From positions 58,670 through 122,669 of the forward strand of contig JBAZXK010000001.1 in the NCBI GenBank assembly GCA_041659905.1: a stretch of DNA of 64,000 bases, written 5' to 3'. The notes below the pieces were generated by a model. That model had not been told where the DNA came from and searched no databases. It worked only from the letters and a program-made list of their open reading frames with translations. This stretch comes from Patescibacteria group bacterium (lineage in GTDB: Bacteria > Patescibacteriota > Kazan-3B-28 > UBA10110). Positions 3,517 to 42,232 of the stretch are shown here, one piece after another. The translations under genes and the position numbers were made by a program. How positions within the stretch are numbered: the stretch's first letter is position 1; every line of letters begins with the position of its first letter.

Positions 3517-5022
3517 ATGGCAGATAACAAAGCTCTCTACCGTCGGTGGCGGCCGCAGGTCTTTGCGGATTTGGTAGGGCAAAACCATGTTAAGCAAACT
3601 ATCATAAACGCCATTAAACAGGGGCATGTCAGTCATGCTTATTTGTTTGCTGGGCCCCGGGGGACTGGCAAAACTTCATTGGCGAGATTGGTAGCCAAGG
3701 CCCTTAATTGTTTAGACCTGAAAGAAGGTGAACCTTGCGGCAAATGCGCTAATTGTTTAGCTCTGGCAGGGGGACGTATGATTGATTTGATCGAAATTGA
3801 TGCCGCCTCCCATACTAGCGTCGACGATGTCAGAAATCTGATCGAACGGGTTAATTTTACTCCCTCAGTCGGTAAATATAAGGTTTATATTATCGATGAA
3901 GTGCACATGCTCTCTAAGAGTGCTTTTAATGCTCTCCTAAAAACCTTAGAAGAACCGCCGGCGCATGCTATTTTTATTTTAGCTACCACGGAAGTACATA
4001 AATTGCCGCCTACAGTCATCTCTCGCTGTCAGTATTTTGATTTTCATTTTCTCTCTCATGCGGAAGTCACGGAACAATTGCGCAAAATTGCCAAACAGGA
4101 AAAAGTGGATATCGACGATGAGGCTCTCCGAATTATTGTCGACAATGCCGAAGGCAGTCTCCGCGATGCCATTAGCATAATGGATCAGGCGACGAGCTTT
4201 GCTGACGGCAAGGTGGATCCAACTACTTTAAAAGACCTTTTAGGGATTGTGGATACGCGATTAGTGGGTGAGCTTACTCAAGCTTTGCTGGATAAAAACG
4301 TTGTGGCAGGCATCAATTTGATCAATGAAACTTATTTTAAAGGATACGATTTAAATCAGTTGAGCAAACTTTGGCTGGAATTTTTACGCGAATTACTAAT
4401 GATCAAATTGGGGAATAGCCAACTAGTCCAAAAATCAGAAGACGAAAAAATGGCTATGGCAAAACAGGCGGAGGGTTTTACTGTCAGCAGTTTAGTTAAT
4501 TTGTTGCAGCGGCTGGTAGAAGCCATCAATCAATATAAGGTAGCTAGTTTGCCCCAGTTAGCTTTAGAAATGGTGCTGGCCAAAAGCTGTAGTGAAACCA
4601 GTGCAACGACCCAGGGCAAATCTATGTCGGTAGCAGTACCGCCGATAGCTCATCCAGTTTCAAATATAATTGAACCGGTGGCAGAGCCTTCTTCTTCTCT
4701 GTTGTCGCCGGATTTGAGTGCGGCAGTTTTGTCCGCACCGGGAAGCAGTGAGATTAAGGAAAAATTATGCGAATTATTGAGCGCTGCCAGTCCCTCGCTC
4801 GGAGCAGTGCTTAAAACTTGCCAGGTAGAAAATCCGACCGGTAAATTGCGCATCAAAGCTCCCAGTAAGTTTTTAAGAGATACTCTGGAAAAATCTACTA
4901 ATCGAGAATTGATTCGGGAGCAATTGGTTAAGTTACAGGTAGGCAGTTTAGAAATCGAATATATAGCGGAAGAGTCGCTAGAAACGGCGGCAGCAGTGGC
5001 CAAGGTGTTTGATATAATGTAA
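3517..5022 (+). CDS. dnaX: DNA polymerase III subunit gamma/tau
   Basis: AAA+ clamp-loader motifs GPRGTGKTS, zinc module CGKCANC, DEVHML, SRC; AGGAGG RBS 6 nt upstream of the ATG at 3517 (the ORF track starts earlier at 3466). Confidence 0.9.
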   Translation: MADNKALYRRWRPQVFADLVGQNHVKQTIINAIKQGHVSHAYLFAGPRGTGKTSLARLVAKALNCLDLKEGEPCGKCANCLALAGGRMIDLIEIDAASHTSVDDVRNLIERVNFTPSVGKYKVYIIDEVHMLSKSAFNALLKTLEEPPAHAIFILATTEVHKLPPTVISRCQYFDFHFLSHAEVTEQLRKIAKQEKVDIDDEALRIIVDNAEGSLRDAISIMDQATSFADGKVDPTTLKDLLGIVDTRLVGELTQALLDKNVVAGINLINETYFKGYDLNQLSKLWLEFLRELLMIKLGNSQLVQKSEDEKMAMAKQAEGFTVSSLVNLLQRLVEAINQYKVASLPQLALEMVLAKSCSETSATTQGKSMSVAVPPIAHPVSNIIEPVAEPSSSLLSPDLSAAVLSAPGSSEIKEKLCELLSAASPSLGAVLKTCQVENPTGKLRIKAPSKFLRDTLEKSTNRELIREQLVKLQVGSLEIEYIAEESLETAAAVAKVFDIM

Positions 5023-9795: not shown

Positions 9796-10694
9796 AAGAA
9801 TCGCGCACGCTCTTTTTGATGCAGGCGTTGGTCGCCACTTTTTTGTGGTCAGCTTCTAAAATTATTTTAAAACTGGGACTGGGTTTGCTTTCCCCTTGGC
9901 TGCTTATTGGTTGTATTCAGGCAGTAGCTTTTTTGGGCCTATTAATTTATAGCCGGTTTTATCCGATAAAATTAAAACAACAGCTTAAATCAAGCGAAAT
10001 TTACGCTCTTGTTTTGTTGAGTATGATGGGGTTTGTGGTCGCTCCCGTGTTTTCTGTGATCGGTCTAAAATATGTGACCGGTCTTACCGCCGGTTTAGTG
10101 GCCGGCTTGGGGTCTGTTTTGGTAGTGCTGTTGGGCTGGTGGATTCTCAGGGAGCGTCCGCGGCAATGGCAAGCTTTCGGGATTTTATTGGCAGTACTGG
10201 GGGCTTATGTTTTTTTGGGTGACGGCCAATTTACCGGTTCTCTTTTAGGCGTATTTATGCTAGTGTTATCAGAATTTGCGTATGCTTTTAATATTGTTTT
10301 AACTAGATTACTCATGCGGCAACCGGGCGACCAATCATTATTAGTGGCTTTAATCGGCTCGTTTATGGGAGCAGCCATTCTACTGCCTGTCGGTTGGTTA
10401 ACCGGCAGCAGCGTAGCCCTGGGTTATTGGCAAACTTGGCTAGTAATTGGATCGGTCGGCCTAATTTTTGCTTTTGCCGGGCTCTTGTGGAATTATTCGC
10501 TAAATTATTTACTGTCGTTTGAAGCTTCGGTATTGCAAAATACCATGTTGATTCAGGTAGGTTTGCTCTCTTGGATTTTTCTGCGCGAAACGATTGTTTG
10601 GTATCACTGGTTGGGTGCGATAATAGTATTGATGGGAGTCTATTTAGTCAACCGACAACTCTTAAACCAGCGTTATGCATCCAGCCGAACTTAG
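9792..10694 (+). CDS. EamA/DMT family transporter
   Basis: 10 predicted TM helices, two EamA-like halves. Confidence 0.7.
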   Translation: MKESRTLFLMQALVATFLWSASKIILKLGLGLLSPWLLIGCIQAVAFLGLLIYSRFYPIKLKQQLKSSEIYALVLLSMMGFVVAPVFSVIGLKYVTGLTAGLVAGLGSVLVVLLGWWILRERPRQWQAFGILLAVLGAYVFLGDGQFTGSLLGVFMLVLSEFAYAFNIVLTRLLMRQPGDQSLLVALIGSFMGAAILLPVGWLTGSSVALGYWQTWLVIGSVGLIFAFAGLLWNYSLNYLLSFEASVLQNTMLIQVGLLSWIFLRETIVWYHWLGAIIVLMGVYLVNRQLLNQRYASSRT

Positions 10695-12051
10695 ATTTTA
10701 TAACACGCTTACTCGGCAAAAAGAAATTTTCCGATCCCTTAGGCGCGGAACAGTTTCACTGTATTCTTGCGGACCGACCGTGTACCAGGCGGCGCATATT
10801 GGCAACCTCAAAACCTATTTGTTTGTCGATATTTTAAAGCGGGTGTTGGAGTACGATGGCTATCGGGTGAAGCACATCATCAATATTACGGATGTGGGGC
10901 ACTTAACTTCCGATGCCGATACCGGCATCGACAAGGTAGAAGCGGCCGCAGAGCGGGAACACAAAACTGCCCCAGAAATTACCAAACATTATGCCGATCT
11001 GTTTCAAAAAGATTTGTTAGCGTTAAATATTGAAAAACCTACCAAATTCGCCTGGGCAAGTGAGTATTTAAAAGATCAGATCAAGTTAGTTCAGGAGTTG
11101 GAGAAAAAGGGGTATACCTACAAAACCTCAGATGGTATTTATTTTGATACCGCCAAGTTTCCCGAGTACGGTAAATTAGCCAAAGTTGGGGCCGGGGAGG
11201 CGAGAGTAGCTCATAGTAGTGGAAAACACAGTGAAGCAGATTTTGCGCTATGGAAATTTTCTCGGTCTGATGAAACCAGGCAGCAGGAATGGCCCAGCCC
11301 CTGGGGCGTGGGTTTCCCGGGTTGGCATTTAGAGTGTTCCGCGATTTCCACGAAAGAGCTCGGCCAGCCGTTTGATATCCATACCGGCGGCGAAGATCAT
11401 ATCGCTATCCATCACAATAACGAAATTGCCCAAAGCGAAGCCGCTTACGGAAAGCCTCTCGCTAACTATTGGCTCCACAGTATGTTTTTACTGGTAAATA
11501 ATGCTAAAATGGCCAAAAGCCAAGGGAATTTTTTGACCTTAGCGGATTTGGAGAAACAGAATTATGAACCATTGGCTTTCCGGTATCTAGTAATTTCCAG
11601 CCACTACCGCAATAAGTTAAATTTTTCTAAAGATGCCATGGACGGGGCCCAAAATTCATTAAATAAATTACGAGAGTTTTTTGCTAAACGAGCTCCGTGG
11701 GGAAAATCATTACAAAATCATCGTAAAGCTTTTATGTTGGCTTTGGGGGACGATCTTAATATGCCGGAAGCGATCAAAGAAGTTTGGAAGGTTGTAAAAT
11801 CCGATGAGGATTTGGCCGACAAACAAGCTACCATTTTAGATTTTGATCGGGTGTTGGGATTGGGGCTTAAAAGTTATCGCCCGCCGTTAATCCCGCGAGA
11901 GATTATCGATTTATCTCGTCAACGCGAAGCAGCTCGCGTCGCCAAAGATTGGATTAAATCCGACGAATTGCGCCAAGCCATTGAAGCTAAAGGTTATCAG
12001 GTTCTCGATACCGACTCCGGCCCCACCCTCAAGAAAGCATCTAGGGACTAG
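10675..12051 (+). CDS. cysS: cysteine--tRNA ligase
   Basis: class I HIGN and KMAKSQGN (KMSKS) motifs, zinc-binding Cys, DALR-like C-terminal domain. Confidence 0.9.
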   Translation: MHPAELRFYNTLTRQKEIFRSLRRGTVSLYSCGPTVYQAAHIGNLKTYLFVDILKRVLEYDGYRVKHIINITDVGHLTSDADTGIDKVEAAAEREHKTAPEITKHYADLFQKDLLALNIEKPTKFAWASEYLKDQIKLVQELEKKGYTYKTSDGIYFDTAKFPEYGKLAKVGAGEARVAHSSGKHSEADFALWKFSRSDETRQQEWPSPWGVGFPGWHLECSAISTKELGQPFDIHTGGEDHIAIHHNNEIAQSEAAYGKPLANYWLHSMFLLVNNAKMAKSQGNFLTLADLEKQNYEPLAFRYLVISSHYRNKLNFSKDAMDGAQNSLNKLREFFAKRAPWGKSLQNHRKAFMLALGDDLNMPEAIKEVWKVVKSDEDLADKQATILDFDRVLGLGLKSYRPPLIPREIIDLSRQREAARVAKDWIKSDELRQAIEAKGYQVLDTDSGPTLKKASRD

Positions 12052-12074: not shown

Positions 12075-12345
12075 AAGGGCAAGCATTTAGCATCTAAGGG
12101 AGAGAAAAATAATTCCCCTCCTGCCGGAGGAGGGGCTGGGGGAGGTGGGAGTATATATTCCCCGAGCGTAGTCGAGCCTGCCTGCCGGTAGGCAGGGGGC
12201 TACTTTATAATGTCCGTCATCCTGAATTTATTTCAGGATCTCCCCACCGTCATTCCCGCGGAGGCGGAAATCCAGACAAGAAAATAAACAGAAACATTTT
12301 TTCTGTTCTTTTCTAGATTCCGGCTCGGAGGCCGGAATGACGGAC
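12075..12345. repeat. composite repeat block (family C motif, family A ggggag/cctgcctgccgg palindrome, gtcatcctgaa hairpin, family B GTCATTCC...GGAATGAC element)
   Basis: matches to the other interspersed copies listed below. Confidence 0.6.
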
Positions 12346-12347
12346 AT

Positions 12348-12478
12348 AAAAAACACCCCGTTCTTTGTCCTATGGAGGTTCATTTCGCATAAAGAGTTCA
12401 GAAACGGGGTGAGGGGGGAAGAGGTTGTACGCTCACATTGACAGGAGGCTACATCTCAATCCCTTGAATATCAGGTAA
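12348..12478 (-). ncRNA. candidate small transcription unit D (promoter TTGACG-17-TATAAT at about 12479-12507 on minus, terminator 12348-12411)
   Basis: perfect -10 TATAAT with 17-nt spacer; transcript about 120 nt ending in a caccccgtt/aacggggtg stem plus T6; no RBS or credible ORF. Confidence 0.35.
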
Positions 12479-12505
12479 ATTATACTCCACCCCTGTTTTG
12501 GCGTC

Positions 12506-12709
12506 AAAAAAGAACCCGCCCGGCAGGCGGGCGGGGCGTGGTTTTGATGGCTAAAAGCCTTCCACTCTAACGAGAATTTCTGTTGCAAATTTAATGAATG
12601 TGCAAAGAGCCGAGGAACCCGATCTGGTACCCTCCAGATTGTGCGGGGAATAATAATGTACGCGCGGGGACTGCTCCCTCGGTCTATCTAACATGATTTG
12701 ACCATTAGT
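12506..12709 (-). ncRNA. candidate small transcription unit C (promoter TTGACA-18-TATATT at about 12710-12739, terminator cccgcccgcctgccgggcggg+T-run at 12506-12536)
   Basis: consensus -35, strong GC hairpin plus T-run on minus strand; next -35 starts immediately after the T-run. Confidence 0.35.
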
Positions 12710-12737
12710 AATATAGTTCATTTTTACTCTTGGTGTC

Positions 12738-12862
12738 AAAAGAAAAACCCCGCCATTAGAGGACGGGATTGTCGCGAAGAGTTTGACCGAAAGCCGATCA
12801 CGGATGCAGCTCCGTTGACGGTTGTTCCTTCGGCTGCAGAAAATGAAATAACTGTTATTTAG
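12738..12862 (-). ncRNA. candidate small transcription unit B (promoter TTGACA-18-TACAAT at about 12863-12892, terminator 12738-12768)
   Basis: same architecture as units C and D; transcript about 115 nt. Confidence 0.35.
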
Positions 12863-12890
12863 ATTGTATATTATTTCTATTCCTGGTGTC

Positions 12891-12929
12891 AAAAAAAATG
12901 ACCCCCACCGCCGTTGGCGGTAAGGGTCA
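12891..12929 (-). terminator. rho-independent terminator downstream of sdpI-like gene (unit A)
   Basis: tgaccc..ccgccaacggcgg..gggtca hairpin followed by T8 on the minus strand; TTGACA of unit B overlaps the T-run. Confidence 0.6.
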
Positions 12930-13016
12930 CAGAGGTTGACCGAAGAGGCTAATGGGGGGATTGGTCCCATTTTGTGACCCTTCGATCTGACCGGATCATG
13001 TCTTTTAGATTATAGC

Positions 13017-13682
13017 TTATTTCTGTTCTTTCCGGAATAGCAGGTAAGAATAAATCACTGGTACCAGCCCAGCCAAGATAATTCCAGCCATCGGGATGTA
13101 AAAATTCAGCGGGGTGGGCCAAATTGGTGTGGTAAAGAATAGCAATCCACCAATCACAAACATATATCCGCCCAAATGATGAGTCTTTTTCCAGTTATCA
13201 TCCGAGTTGAGTGTCCATGGCGTCCGGATACCCATAAAGAAGTTGGACTTGATTTGATGCAGATAATTGCCGATCAAAATAAACAAAGCTCCGACCGCCA
13301 TGGGCACAATTACATCAATTTTTAAGGGCTGGCCGGTAACTGCTACCCAAGTTGTAAGCAAGAACATAAATAGTAAGAATACCATCATGACATTTCTAAT
13401 CATCTGGTAGAAGCCCATGGATTGATGAAAATGTTCTCGGCGAGGTTCAAAGACTGGGATCAGTAAAAATAGCAGATACATCCCTAACATCATTACTGGA
13501 ATCCCCAAAGCGTGGCCCAGAGGGCTGGTCCAACCATCAACCTGGCCGGTAATGCCCCAATGGGATGGCACTAACGCGGGCAGTTTCGGATAAGCCCACC
13601 AGCCGACTGCTGCGGCGATAATAATAGTCAACCAAGAAAACCACTCATTGCGGATATTGAATTTGAATTTTTCTGTCGCCAT
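13017..13682 (-). CDS. SdpI/YhfL-family membrane protein (DUF1648-like immunity protein)
   Basis: multi-TM protein with IRTPWTL and W.KTHHLGG motifs characteristic of SdpI/YhfL family; ArsR-family regulator upstream on same strand. Confidence 0.6.
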   Translation of the reverse strand: MATEKFKFNIRNEWFSWLTIIIAAAVGWWAYPKLPALVPSHWGITGQVDGWTSPLGHALGIPVMMLGMYLLFLLIPVFEPRREHFHQSMGFYQMIRNVMMVFLLFMFLLTTWVAVTGQPLKIDVIVPMAVGALFILIGNYLHQIKSNFFMGIRTPWTLNSDDNWKKTHHLGGYMFVIGGLLFFTTPIWPTPLNFYIPMAGIILAGLVPVIYSYLLFRKEQK

Positions 13683-13724: not shown

Positions 13725-13865
13725 GTCATTCCCGACCTTTCTCTTCTGTCATCCTCGACCGACGCGCATGGCGCAGTTCGGATCGGGGATCCCTGCCTAC
13801 CGGCAGGCAGGCAGGCCTAGATCCCAGATCCTGATTTGCCTTTGGCAATCCGGTCTGGGATGACA
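13725..13865. repeat. MITE-like element family B (GTCATTCCCG ... GGGATGACA) containing palindrome cctgcctaccggcaggcagg
   Basis: terminal inverted repeats; nearly identical copies at 55792-55894 and 59011-59129. Confidence 0.7.
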
Positions 13866-13866
13866 A

Positions 13867-14175
13867 TTAATACACAGAATCTTTACTATTAAATGTTTCT
13901 AATAAATTATTTAACACCTCGTAAAAAACCGTCGTATTAAGGGAATAGATAATCTTTTGGCCTTTTCGTTCGGAAGTTGCCAGATTGGCCTGTTTCAGCA
14001 CTGAAAAATGATGCGACAGCGAGGGCAGGGACAAAGCAGGGAAGCGGGAAGCAATCTGGCCAGCTGTCAGATCTCTTTTTTGGAGCAGTTTTAATATTCT
14101 TCTCCGCGTAGGATCAGACAAGGCATGCAAGGCAACTGAGATAGATTCAATAGTCATATTTAGATATTTAAACAA
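13867..14175 (-). CDS. ArsR/SmtB family transcriptional regulator (SdpR-like)
   Basis: HTH with LSDPTRRRIL and LSHHFSVLKQANL signatures of the ArsR family. Confidence 0.8.
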   Translation of the reverse strand: MFKYLNMTIESISVALHALSDPTRRRILKLLQKRDLTAGQIASRFPALSLPSLSHHFSVLKQANLATSERKGQKIIYSLNTTVFYEVLNNLLETFNSKDSVY

Positions 14176-14224
14176 CTATCTAAATACTACCAATAGATAC
14201 TTGGATTGTCAATATTCTAGGGCT

Positions 14225-14510: not shown

Positions 14511-14786
14511 TTGGGGGATATAATAGCGGCATTATTTGCTAAACAAACTAATAATATGATGCTTTTGCCACAAACAATGATTCAGATTGTTGGCTCTGGA
14601 GGGGGGCTCATTATTGATCTGGACAAGCAGATGCTTTTAACTGATTCCATGATTCAAATAGCAGCAGCTGCAGCGCACTCAGGTGCCAAGGTTACATTTC
14701 GTCTAGGTAAAACTATCCTTCTGAGCGATGTCATGATTCAAATAGCAGCAGCTGGTCGTGGTTCTGTAACTTTTGATCTCAGATAA
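14511..14786 (+). CDS. small protein built from three tandem about 25-28 aa repeats (MLLxxxMIQIAAA...), TTG start
   Basis: in-frame DNA-level tandem repeat atgcttttRnc..atgattcaaatagcagcagctg x3; no RBS, alternative ATG at 14556; could instead be a non-coding minisatellite. Confidence 0.3.
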   Translation: MGDIIAALFAKQTNNMMLLPQTMIQIVGSGGGLIIDLDKQMLLTDSMIQIAAAAAHSGAKVTFRLGKTILLSDVMIQIAAAGRGSVTFDLR

Positions 14787-14793
14787 AAACATT

Positions 14794-15516
14794 ATGGATC
14801 AAAACTATTATTTTATTGATGGGTCTGCTCTCTTGGCCCAAGTACGGACTCTCTGGAAAAAAGAACCTGCGTTTAATTGGCGTAGACTTGATCCTCTGAA
14901 GTTTATTAAACATCTTGCTTTTTCATACCCTGATCTTGGCTCAGCTAACTATAAAAGAGCTGAATTCTTTTTTCCATCTGGAGAACAAAATATAGAAACA
15001 TATCTTTTGACACCAGAAATCACAGCACCTGGACTCGTGCGCGATGTCCATTTTAAATACTGTGGGGAAAAATTAGATCGTTCTGTAGCGTATGAAAAAT
15101 GGTTGGAGGAAGAAGTGCCTCCACAATGGAGAGATAGGTGTGTCAAAAGTGAGAAAGGAGTAGATATAGAAATATGCTGTAATGCCTTAAGACTAGCCTC
15201 TATGGGAAAAATGGACCGGTTGTTCTTCTTTACTAACGACCGAGACTTTATTCCTCTTTGTAAAACCCTAAAAGATTTCGGTACTAATGTAAGCTTGATC
15301 CATCTTTCTAAACATACCAACCCAAATAAGCAACTTATTGACGAATGTGATTCTTATGACGTTTTAAAAGAGGACTACCTTAATAATATATTTGAAGATT
15401 CAAAGTTATCAGATGATAAGCAAATAAGTTCTATTGAAGAGATAGTTGATGTTGATGCCAACGCTACCGTTGAATTATTGCCTGAATCCCAAGAAGTTTT
15501 AGATAAAGCAATCTGA
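14794..15516 (+). CDS. NYN/LabA-like (PIN-like) domain protein
   Basis: YYFIDGSAL start and KGVDIEICCNALRLASMGKMDRLFFFTNDRDFIPL match NYN domain acidic residues; upstream in-frame ATG at 14773 is also possible. Confidence 0.65.
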   Translation: MDQNYYFIDGSALLAQVRTLWKKEPAFNWRRLDPLKFIKHLAFSYPDLGSANYKRAEFFFPSGEQNIETYLLTPEITAPGLVRDVHFKYCGEKLDRSVAYEKWLEEEVPPQWRDRCVKSEKGVDIEICCNALRLASMGKMDRLFFFTNDRDFIPLCKTLKDFGTNVSLIHLSKHTNPNKQLIDECDSYDVLKEDYLNNIFEDSKLSDDKQISSIEEIVDVDANATVELLPESQEVLDKAI

Positions 15517-29648: not shown

Positions 29649-29677
29649 ATTGACAAGCACCTAAATAAACGCTAAGA
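29649..29677 (+). promoter_or_regulatory. sigma70-like promoter (TTGACA-17-TAAGAT)
   Basis: consensus -35, 17-nt spacer. Confidence 0.4.
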
Positions 29678-29713
29678 TAATTTCATTCCAAAGTAATATT
29701 TGTTCTTTGTATG

Positions 29714-29741
29714 GTGGGGTTCGATTCCACCTTCCCACCCA
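29714..29741 (+). other. tRNA 3'-half-like fragment (T-arm gtggg-gttcgat-tccac, acceptor 3' strand, encoded CCA) with no 5' half
   Basis: no complementary 5' acceptor strand within 500 nt; downstream terminator at 29786-29820 is homologous to the terminator after the tRNA at 30318-30392. Confidence 0.5.
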
Positions 29742-42160: not shown

Positions 42161-42232
42161 GGCGGTGTGAAAGGTTACATCATAAGGACTTGGGATCCTA
42201 TGTGATCGGAGGTTCAATTCCTCCCACCGCCT
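42161..42232 (+). other. tRNA-like element / possible pseudo-tRNA
   Basis: 7-bp acceptor-like pairing ggcggtg/caccgcc and canonical T-arm ggagg-ttcaatt-cctcc, but D and anticodon arms cannot be folded canonically by eye. Confidence 0.3.

Follow-up and report, generated by a model that had tools for sequence, protein, structure and literature searches.

The spacer between sdpI and the convergent gene cysS in a Patescibacteria group bacterium (contig JBAZXK010000001.1; all coordinates refer to the 64-kb window of this contig that was analyzed) holds on its minus strand a tandem array of four units, designated A to D. Alignment of the promoters of these units with the 3' ends of sdpI genes showed the array, as far as it can be read from sequence, to have arisen by serial tandem duplication of one segment, namely, the last ~20 nucleotides (nt) of sdpI together with a -10 hexamer, the 3' untranslated region (3'UTR), and an intrinsic terminator. 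The interpretation that we favor, to which we give an even chance, is that this is a lineage-specific array of four independently transcribed noncoding units, encoding sibling small RNAs (sRNAs) that derive from the sdpI 3'UTR and would act in trans by base pairing.

Organization of the array

The stop codons of sdpI and cysS lie 965 bp apart, with no credible gene between them. A preliminary description had proposed several back-to-back promoter/terminator units on the minus strand directly after sdpI, and four were found:

12890 to 13014, minus strand: unit A, corresponding to the sdpI 3'UTR, with the -10 hexamer TATAAT at 13014 to 13009, just past the stop codon
12931 to 12944, minus strand: shared motif TTCGGTCAAMCTCT (in unit A UUCGGUCAACCUCU), just 5' of the terminator
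12930 to 12898, minus strand: terminator hairpin and T-run closing unit A
12740 to 12892, minus strand: unit B, a paralogue of A; predicted RNA ~12856 to 12741 (116 nt)
12892 to 12863, minus strand: unit B promoter, TTGACA, 18-nt spacer, TACAAT; 11/12 consensus positions
12778 to 12791, minus strand: copy of the shared motif in unit B (UUCGGUCAAACUCU), in the same 153-nt register as in A
12770 to 12746, minus strand: terminator hairpin and T-run closing unit B
12508 to 12739, minus strand: unit C; predicted RNA ~12703 to 12509 (195 nt)
12739 to 12710, minus strand: unit C promoter, TTGACA, 18-nt spacer, TATATT; 11/12 consensus positions
12565 to 12538, minus strand: C2 core, GUGGAAGG, hairpin, AAAACCACGCCCC; the motif is also present in L005, L006, L016, and L038 (loci of relatives; see below)
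12535 to 12515, minus strand: terminator hairpin and T-run closing unit C
12348 to 12507, minus strand: unit D; predicted RNA ~12472 to 12348 (~125 nt)
12507 to 12479, minus strand: unit D promoter, TTGACG, 17-nt spacer, TATAAT; 11/12 consensus positions
12418 to 12430, minus strand: looser copy of the shared motif in unit D (GUACAACCUCUUC)
12411 to 12354, minus strand: long hairpin and T-run closing unit D

Using a consensus scan, three minus-strand promoters matching 11 of 12 consensus positions were identified, those of units B, C, and D. Sites of this quality are scarce, with 12 in the whole window on both strands, and others among them lie directly upstream of tRNA genes, at 30252 (tRNA at 30317) and 42092 (tRNAs at 42161 and 42252); this location suggests that consensus sigma-70 promoters are genuine signals here. 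The occurrence of three of the 12 sites inside 420 nt on one strand has a probability of ~0.006 under random placement, a figure that does not count their coupling to terminators. The promoters and the four terminators strictly alternate, and at all three internal promoters the -35 hexamer begins within, or directly after, the T-run of the preceding terminator, as had been described. Each internal unit is thus predicted to have its own promoter and Rho-independent terminator, the latter 115 to 195 nt past the promoter. The proposal that every unit has a consensus promoter held for B, C, and D only, as unit A has a -10 hexamer and a weak -35 (2 to 3 of 6 positions) that is located in the sdpI coding sequence. 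Unit A is primarily, on its sequence features, the 3'UTR and terminator of sdpI, with a predicted RNA of ~110 nt that ends in a 15-bp hairpin and a run of 8 Ts. It also fits the layout of a 3'UTR-derived sRNA, beginning at the sdpI stop codon and using the sdpI terminator.

Units A and B share a common 153-nt register (repeat families D2, D4, and D9), with a z-score of 2.65 when their bodies alone are compared, in addition to the shared 14-nt motif. This motif, previously reported as common to the units, is real in A and B, with only the looser copy in D; it is unpaired in B and mostly paired in the minimum free energy (MFE) folds of A and D. Throughout the array the promoter modules are homologous; the bodies of C1, C2, and D show similarity neither to A and B nor to one another. 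Unit C consists of three pieces, C1 (12703 to 12600), a decayed promoter module (~12590 to 12573; ATTTGCAACAGAAAT), and C2, a unit type that relatives carry by itself. It represents two earlier units that have fused, the promoter that once separated them having decayed; the original number of units was at least five. The upper part of the unit D terminator hairpin holds a GAACCUCCAUA segment. Folding of the predicted transcripts against shuffled sequences gave a mixed result, with z-scores of -4.66 for A (MFE, -48.4), -2.79 for D, and -2.42 for B versus -1.8 for C, which is no better than shuffles.

No open reading frame (ORF) with a proper ribosome-binding site was found inside the units and no frame is conserved, in agreement with the earlier account. 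The only ORF proposed here (12551 to 12970; 139 amino acids [aa]) crosses two terminators, has no Pfam match, and among 5.8 billion proteins had only itself as a homologue, flagging as spurious the 139-aa "hypothetical protein" that is called across the array in public records. At gathering thresholds the array had no match in Rfam 15 (the best subthreshold matches had E > 1), so the units do not belong to any Rfam family; across seven related loci, Rfam returned tRNAs and an anti-hemB match at 30 bits (threshold, 49.5). When the units were searched by BLASTN, no further copies were identified in the window or in any fetched locus, and the units are therefore not dispersed repeats of the repetitive extragenic palindromic (REP) or miniature inverted-repeat transposable element (MITE) type. 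Tandem Repeats Finder (TRF) found no tandem repeat in the array because the units are too diverged.

Origin of the units and comparison with relatives

To compare the units across genomes, loci of relatives were fetched (designated L005, L006, L016, etc.) and compared with that of the window. The bacterium is uncultured and related to candidate division Kazan: SdpI homologues labeled Patescibacteria share 78 to 88% identity, and one labeled Kazan shares 62%. L016 and L017 come from the groundwater samples of PRJNA292723. Promoter modules were anchored on the -35 hexamer and aligned to the sdpI 3' ends of the window and its relatives:

Window sdpI end: -35 position ATTCCG; spacer gaaagaacagaaataagc; -10 TATAAT
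L016 sdpI end: -35 position CTTCCA; spacer ccaagaccagaaatgatt; -10 TATACT
L038 sdpI end: -35 position TTCCGC; spacer caagaacagaaataatc; -10 TATAAT
L035 internal unit: -35 TTGACG; spacer ccaagaacagaaatagag; -10 TATAAT
L005 internal unit: -35 TTGACG; spacer ccaagaaaagaaatgata; -10 TACAAT
Window unit B: -35 TTGACA; spacer ccaggaatagaaataata; -10 TACAAT
Window unit C: -35 TTGACA; spacer ccaagagtaaaaatgaac; -10 TATATT

The sdpI genes end in the pattern TTC CGC CAA GAA CAG AAA TAA, with TATAAT or TATACT a few bases past the stop; in the window the last codons are TTC CGG AAA GAA CAG AAA TAA (TTCCGCCAAGAACAGAAATAA). The promoter module, TTGACRCCAAGAACAGAAAT followed by TATAAT, duplicates these last codons together with the -10 hexamer just past the stop, and it is in register with the sdpI end, as L035 TTGACGccaagaacagaaatagagTATAAT matches L038 sdpI TTCCGCcaagaacagaaataatcTATAAT. 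Every relative that has a first unit carries a -10-like hexamer past the sdpI stop, which is TATAAT or TATACT in the window, L004, L021, L006, L016, L035, and L038 and only CATACT in L005, while the -35 of the first promoter matches just 2 to 3 of 6 positions. As each promoter module copies this end of the gene, the array grew by tandem duplication of the sdpI 3' end, 3'UTR, and terminator. Within the internal copies, which are free of coding constraint, the nucleotides that had encoded Phe-Arg (TTCCGC) turned into a consensus -35 hexamer (TTGACR). The preliminary description, although sound on the layout, was incomplete in that it overlooked the sdpI-derived promoter modules, the fusion in unit C, and the variability of the array among close relatives.

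The synteny of sdpR-sdpI with cysS-EamA-recR is kept among the relatives, but the length of the spacer is highly variable:

Shorter spacers: L018, 0 bp; L023, 14 bp; L036, 85 bp; L038, ~270 bp
Longer spacers: L004 and L026, ~310 bp; L016, 445 bp; L005, ~520 bp; L006, ~590 bp; L021, 642 bp; window, 965 bp

Between zero and two complete units are found in the relatives that share this synteny. Two are present in each of L016, L005, and L006, one is present in each of L038 and L004, and the Kazan locus L026 has one with its own 10/12 promoter. L034, whose SdpI is 85% identical, has GC palindromes and no units. L035 carries at least two units and a relic module without a -10 hexamer, and its contig ends inside the array, at a third unit. 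L005, L016, L038, L006, and L035 have their first unit arranged in the same way, immediately past the sdpI stop, and the internal promoters of the relatives likewise adjoin the preceding terminator. Within L005, positions 4745 to 4822 hold a TTGACG-18-TACAAT promoter (10/12) that is followed after only ~43 nt by a strong terminator, making a minimal unit with almost no cargo; this stretch is spanned by the subthreshold anti-hemB match.

Fourfold degenerate sites of sdpI are only 38 to 48% identical between these genomes, which is near saturation, so neutral DNA should be unalignable. Nevertheless, the -35 and -10 hexamers are at 10 to 11 of 12 consensus positions in seven internal units across five genomes, and several transcript segments can be matched. 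A C2-type core (GUGGRAG, a variable hairpin, AAACCACRCCCC, and a terminator) lies at an equivalent position in five genomes (window, L005, L006, L016, and L038), with 22 invariant columns; elsewhere in the fetched loci it had a single match, inside coding sequence in L037, which is probably due to chance. The inner hairpin of this type varies in sequence and length (GGCU/AGCC, GGCCAGG/CUUGGCC, and GGAUCG/CGAUCU), and its retention despite such change is suggestive. The 3' block of D (12382 to 12340; the last ~45 nt) is ~90% identical to unit 2 of L016, including UGAACCUCCAUA. C1 is homologous to unit 2 of L035 (z = 4.2), which has its own terminator, and unit 1 of L035 matches unit 1 of L006 around GUACCUCC (z = 4.3). 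The retention of the hexamers and of the C2, D, and C1 cores despite near-saturated synonymous sites speaks for purifying selection acting on the points where transcription starts and stops and on short stretches of the RNAs.

Other samples yielded contigs of this genome that were 100% identical and thus uninformative on population variation. A metagenome scan with SdpI added one partial relative only, and the promoter module, run against viral contigs, returned two chance matches, of which the one inspected (L040) lies within coding sequence.

Candidate functions of the units

Under the sRNA interpretation, each unit would give rise to a discrete RNA of ~115 to 195 nt ending at its Rho-independent terminator, unit A would double as the sdpI 3'UTR, and each internal copy would be driven by a strong sigma-70 promoter abutting the preceding T-run. 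The promoters look constitutive. Units would be born, fused, and lost quickly, and a locus with such fast turnover would be a nursery of sRNAs, not a conserved locus with a housekeeping role. The RNAs may act in trans by base pairing, a role suggested weakly by analogy and by short islands conserved among paralogous and orthologous units, which are C/U-rich and resemble an anti-Shine-Dalgarno sequence (CAAMCUCU, GAACCUCCAUA, and GUACCUCC). These islands, some unpaired beside the terminator (unit B) and others within predicted hairpins, resemble the CU-rich seeds of Gram-positive sRNAs. The C2 type carries a Shine-Dalgarno-like GUGGGAGG, which could pair with other units.

The proposal that the array encodes regulatory sRNAs is thus partly supported, and better than the other readings, in that the units are noncoding and consistent in strand, have kept near-consensus signals, and have conserved orthologous cores. 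Several observations weigh against it. The array is missing in L034, and the spacers of L018, L023, and L036 measure 0, 14, and 85 bp, so it is dispensable in close relatives. Transcript bodies are less conserved than promoters and terminators, and unit C and several units of relatives are no more stable in folding than shuffled sequences. CU-rich tetramers are not significantly enriched (35 observed versus 26.9 ± 5.5 in shuffles; P ~0.09). A search of the 64-kb window for targets yielded no convincing site, as RNAduplex against 68 translation initiation regions produced no outlier and matches to the reverse complement of the shared motif lie inside ORFs. The RNAs themselves are predictions from the DNA. 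At most five orthologues are available, too few for covariation statistics. In the C2 type, P1 (GUGG/CCAC) is the one helix that can be aligned, and as it does not vary it is uninformative on covariation; the variable hairpin does not permit a column-wise alignment.

The main rival, which we regard as unlikely, is that the array is neutral duplication debris, in which the sdpI terminator region was copied repeatedly, by slippage or by unequal recombination where the T-run meets TTGAC, into units that decay and, whether transcribed or not, have no function. Such debris would suit the zero to two complete units of close relatives (some with a 0-bp spacer), the poorly conserved transcript bodies, the decayed promoter in unit C, the relic module without a -10 hexamer in L035, and the L005 promoter with a terminator after only ~43 nt. 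It is harder to reconcile with -35 and -10 hexamers that are maintained in seven internal units of five genomes, with a -35 that improved from TTCCGC to TTGACR where decay would be expected, and with the conservation of the C2, D, and C1 cores across genomes.

A role in cis is improbable. The array lies exactly between convergent genes, and an extra minus-strand hairpin (12135 to 12115) precedes the 3' end of cysS, as might be expected of a fail-safe terminator stack or insulator between sdpI and cysS or of antisense read-through that tunes cysS. However, insulation requires terminators, not consensus promoters that add transcription toward cysS, and relatives manage with 0 to 14 bp between the two genes; the terminators are also strong, and ~300 nt of repeat DNA separate unit D from cysS. 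Still less probable is that the units encode very small proteins, such as peptides linked to SdpI-type immunity. Bacillus SdpI is linked to a peptide toxin, and ORFs of 12 to 47 codons can be drawn in the units, but none combines a proper Shine-Dalgarno sequence and spacing with a stop before the terminator. Read by eye, 30 nt separate the two conserved blocks of C2 in L005 versus 34 nt in L038, and the L035 homologue of the 47-codon ORF of C1 stops after 5 codons. The small-ORF reading was therefore rejected, on the ORF scan and the lack of frame conservation across orthologous units.

The anatomy of the array largely refutes the remaining readings, which have the lowest probability of all: the tandem noncoding layout could recall an RNA antitoxin (type III, ToxI-like), a CRISPR- or TIGR-like guide array (TIGR-Tas arrays are reported in phage and parasitic bacteria [PMC12045711]), or a protein sponge (CsrB/RsmX-like or 6S-like), but TRF found no short, regular, near-identical repeats, neither a toxin gene nor a Cas or Tas gene lies next to the array (the neighbors being sdpI and cysS), the ~2 to 3 GGA motifs per unit counted by eye are roughly the chance expectation, unit C lacks a 6S-like long hairpin, and there were no Rfam matches. 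The multicopy RNA antitoxin raised in the preliminary description is thus not supported, as downstream there is only the convergent cysS and no toxin-like ORF, short repeats are lacking, and each unit is its own predicted transcription unit.

Surrounding features and relation to known sRNAs

The genes and signals that flank the array are as follows:

14212 to 14184, minus strand: sdpR promoter, from the consensus promoter scan
13867 to 14175, minus strand: ArsR/SdpR-like helix-turn-helix repressor gene, sdpR (Pfam HTH_20/HTH_5)
13017 to 13682, minus strand: SdpI/YfhL-family membrane protein gene, sdpI (Pfam SdpI and DUF1648), with its stop codon at 13019 to 13017
10675 to 12051, plus strand: cysS, convergent with sdpI

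Between the sdpR promoter and ATG, an inverted repeat with 10-nt arms, TATTTAGATA-N10-TATCTAAATA, was found at 14157 to 14186 on the minus strand. It precedes sdpR almost unchanged in L005, L006, L016, L018, L021, and L023, is recognizable in the Kazan locus L026, and is probably an ArsR/SdpR autoregulatory operator. The conserved repeat suggests that the true sdpR start is probably ATG at 14157 rather than TTG at 14175. Control of the array by SdpR was considered and rejected, as the operator (ATTTAGATA-N10/11-TATCTAAAT) is lacking there, with one chance-level half-site at the transcription start of unit B; by eye, none was apparent in the unit promoters of the relatives.

The ~300 nt between unit D and cysS are repeat DNA. 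A dispersed palindromic repeat ending in GGRATGAC occurs in 16 copies in the window (1.7 expected), at 12248/12334, 13724/13857, 14224/14275, 37802/37822, 43035, 49358/49379, 55791, 59010/59122, and 63868/63978, and also in the spacers of L004, L005, L006, L016, L021, and L038. Most copies form inverted pairs that enclose a small hairpin, the two members being 20 to 110 nt apart, such as GTCATTCCGGCCTCCGAGCCGGAATC and GGATTTCCGCCTCCGCGGGAATGAC at 12247 to 12343, and the repeat is a REP- or MITE-like element with which the intergenic spacers of this clade are filled. A second family, the palindrome CCTGCCTACCGGCAGGCAGG (29-nt arms, 90% complementary), is present at 12169 to 12197 and 13791 to 13819, bracketing the sdpI-plus-array block on both sides, and in the spacers of L016 and L006. 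Contig L003 starts and stops at repeat-rich positions (~13810 and ~12214), which may reflect assembly breaks. The minus-strand terminator-like hairpin at 12115 to 12135 (CCCCTCCTCCGGCAGGAGGGG, then AATTATTTTT) lies just ahead of the cysS 3' end, and the block adjoining it is kept in L034; no obvious plus-strand intrinsic terminator for cysS was identified.

Elsewhere in the window, the stretch from 29650 to 29820 (plus strand) contains a 10/12 promoter, then a tRNA 3' fragment (ggtggggttcgattccaccttcccaccca), and then a terminator similar to that downstream of the tRNA at 30317 to 30393 (compared region, 30252 to 30449, plus strand); the pair looks like a duplicated attachment (att) site bracketing a small insert with an ORF at 29952 to 30266. 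For this tRNA (77 nt; 56 bits with the Rfam tRNA model), ARAGORN predicted tRNA-Asn, anticodon ATT, with an unusual anticodon loop; the tRNA at 42161 to 42232 was detected by Rfam only (34.7 bits) and not by ARAGORN. A 91-aa ORF at 14511 to 14786 (plus strand) has three internal repeats (LLPQTMIQIVGSGGG, LLTDSMIQIAAAAAHSG, and LLSDVMIQIAAAGRG) and no Pfam match and lies directly upstream of, and overlaps, an NYN-domain gene (14773 to 15516).

Tandem sRNA genes are known from other bacteria. LhrC1-4 of Listeria monocytogenes lie in tandem, each copy with its own promoter and intrinsic terminator, and each NsiR1 repeat of Nostoc/Anabaena likewise has its own promoter and terminator. sRNAs derived from 3'UTRs are either transcribed from a promoter in the upstream coding sequence (DapZ/MicL type) or released by processing (CpxQ/SroC type). 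Unit A and the C2-type first units of L005, L016, and L038 resemble these 3'UTR sRNAs in starting at the sdpI stop, in sharing the mRNA terminator, and in having a conserved -10 hexamer that overlaps the end of the coding sequence, but they differ in the weak -35 (2 to 3 of 6) of the first promoter. To our knowledge, free-standing later duplicates are not a described feature of 3'UTR sRNAs.

The LhrC1-5 family (PMC4132741) comprises several copies of an ~100-nt sRNA, comparable with the multiple candidate units of the window, which likewise carry CCUC(C/U)-type islands, next to or inside their terminators. The LhrC copies are closely similar and coregulated by LisRK, whereas only A and B are recognizably paralogous here and C and D differ; the array shares no sequence homology with LhrC, and no regulator site was found in it. 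The tandem arrangement of NsiR1 is also alike, but its repeats (PMC9045159, citing Ionescu et al. 2010) are ~60 nt, many, mostly identical, and preceded by a HetR-dependent promoter, compared with diverged units of 115 to 195 nt under sigma-70-consensus promoters. PrrF1/PrrF2, OmrA/OmrB, and AbcR1/AbcR2 are adjacent duplicated sRNA genes whose copy number and arrangement vary among related species (PMC4211561), as do those of the candidate units here. These pairs share >65% identity, are Hfq dependent, and belong to Proteobacteria, in contrast to four or five units of much lower identity in a bacterium of the Candidate Phyla Radiation (CPR). Duplication-derived tandem or multicopy sRNA genes, csRNAs included, are well known (PMC4211561). 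Overall, the locus would work like the known tandem and 3'UTR sRNAs, yet by sequence it belongs to none of them and would represent new RNA families; its distinctive features are a promoter recycled from the last codons of the upstream gene, the heterogeneous cargo of the units, and the CPR host.

It is possible, though doubtful, that the Kazan-related CPR clade makes sRNA genes by "promoter capture," with duplicated codons becoming a -35 hexamer, and so generates strongly expressed riboregulators of fast turnover, of which some would have seeds that resemble an anti-Shine-Dalgarno sequence. For small RNAs in Patescibacteria, a full-text search of the literature returned a single paper, on the unrelated TIGR-Tas system (PMC12045711), and riboregulation in CPR bacteria appears essentially uncharted. 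If the sRNA interpretation is true, the units would be among the first riboregulators described in these bacteria and would offer a clean, datable case of an sRNA gene arising de novo out of a 3'UTR. Provided that they are transcribed, the units would add new sRNA families from very small, host-dependent genomes, in which any 1 kb of noncoding DNA is conspicuous. Regardless of function, the locus records how an sRNA gene may originate, as a 3'UTR and its terminator are duplicated, codons turn into a -35 hexamer, the cargo diverges, and units fuse or die, and the origin of new bacterial sRNAs thereby becomes testable through comparative genomics in this clade.

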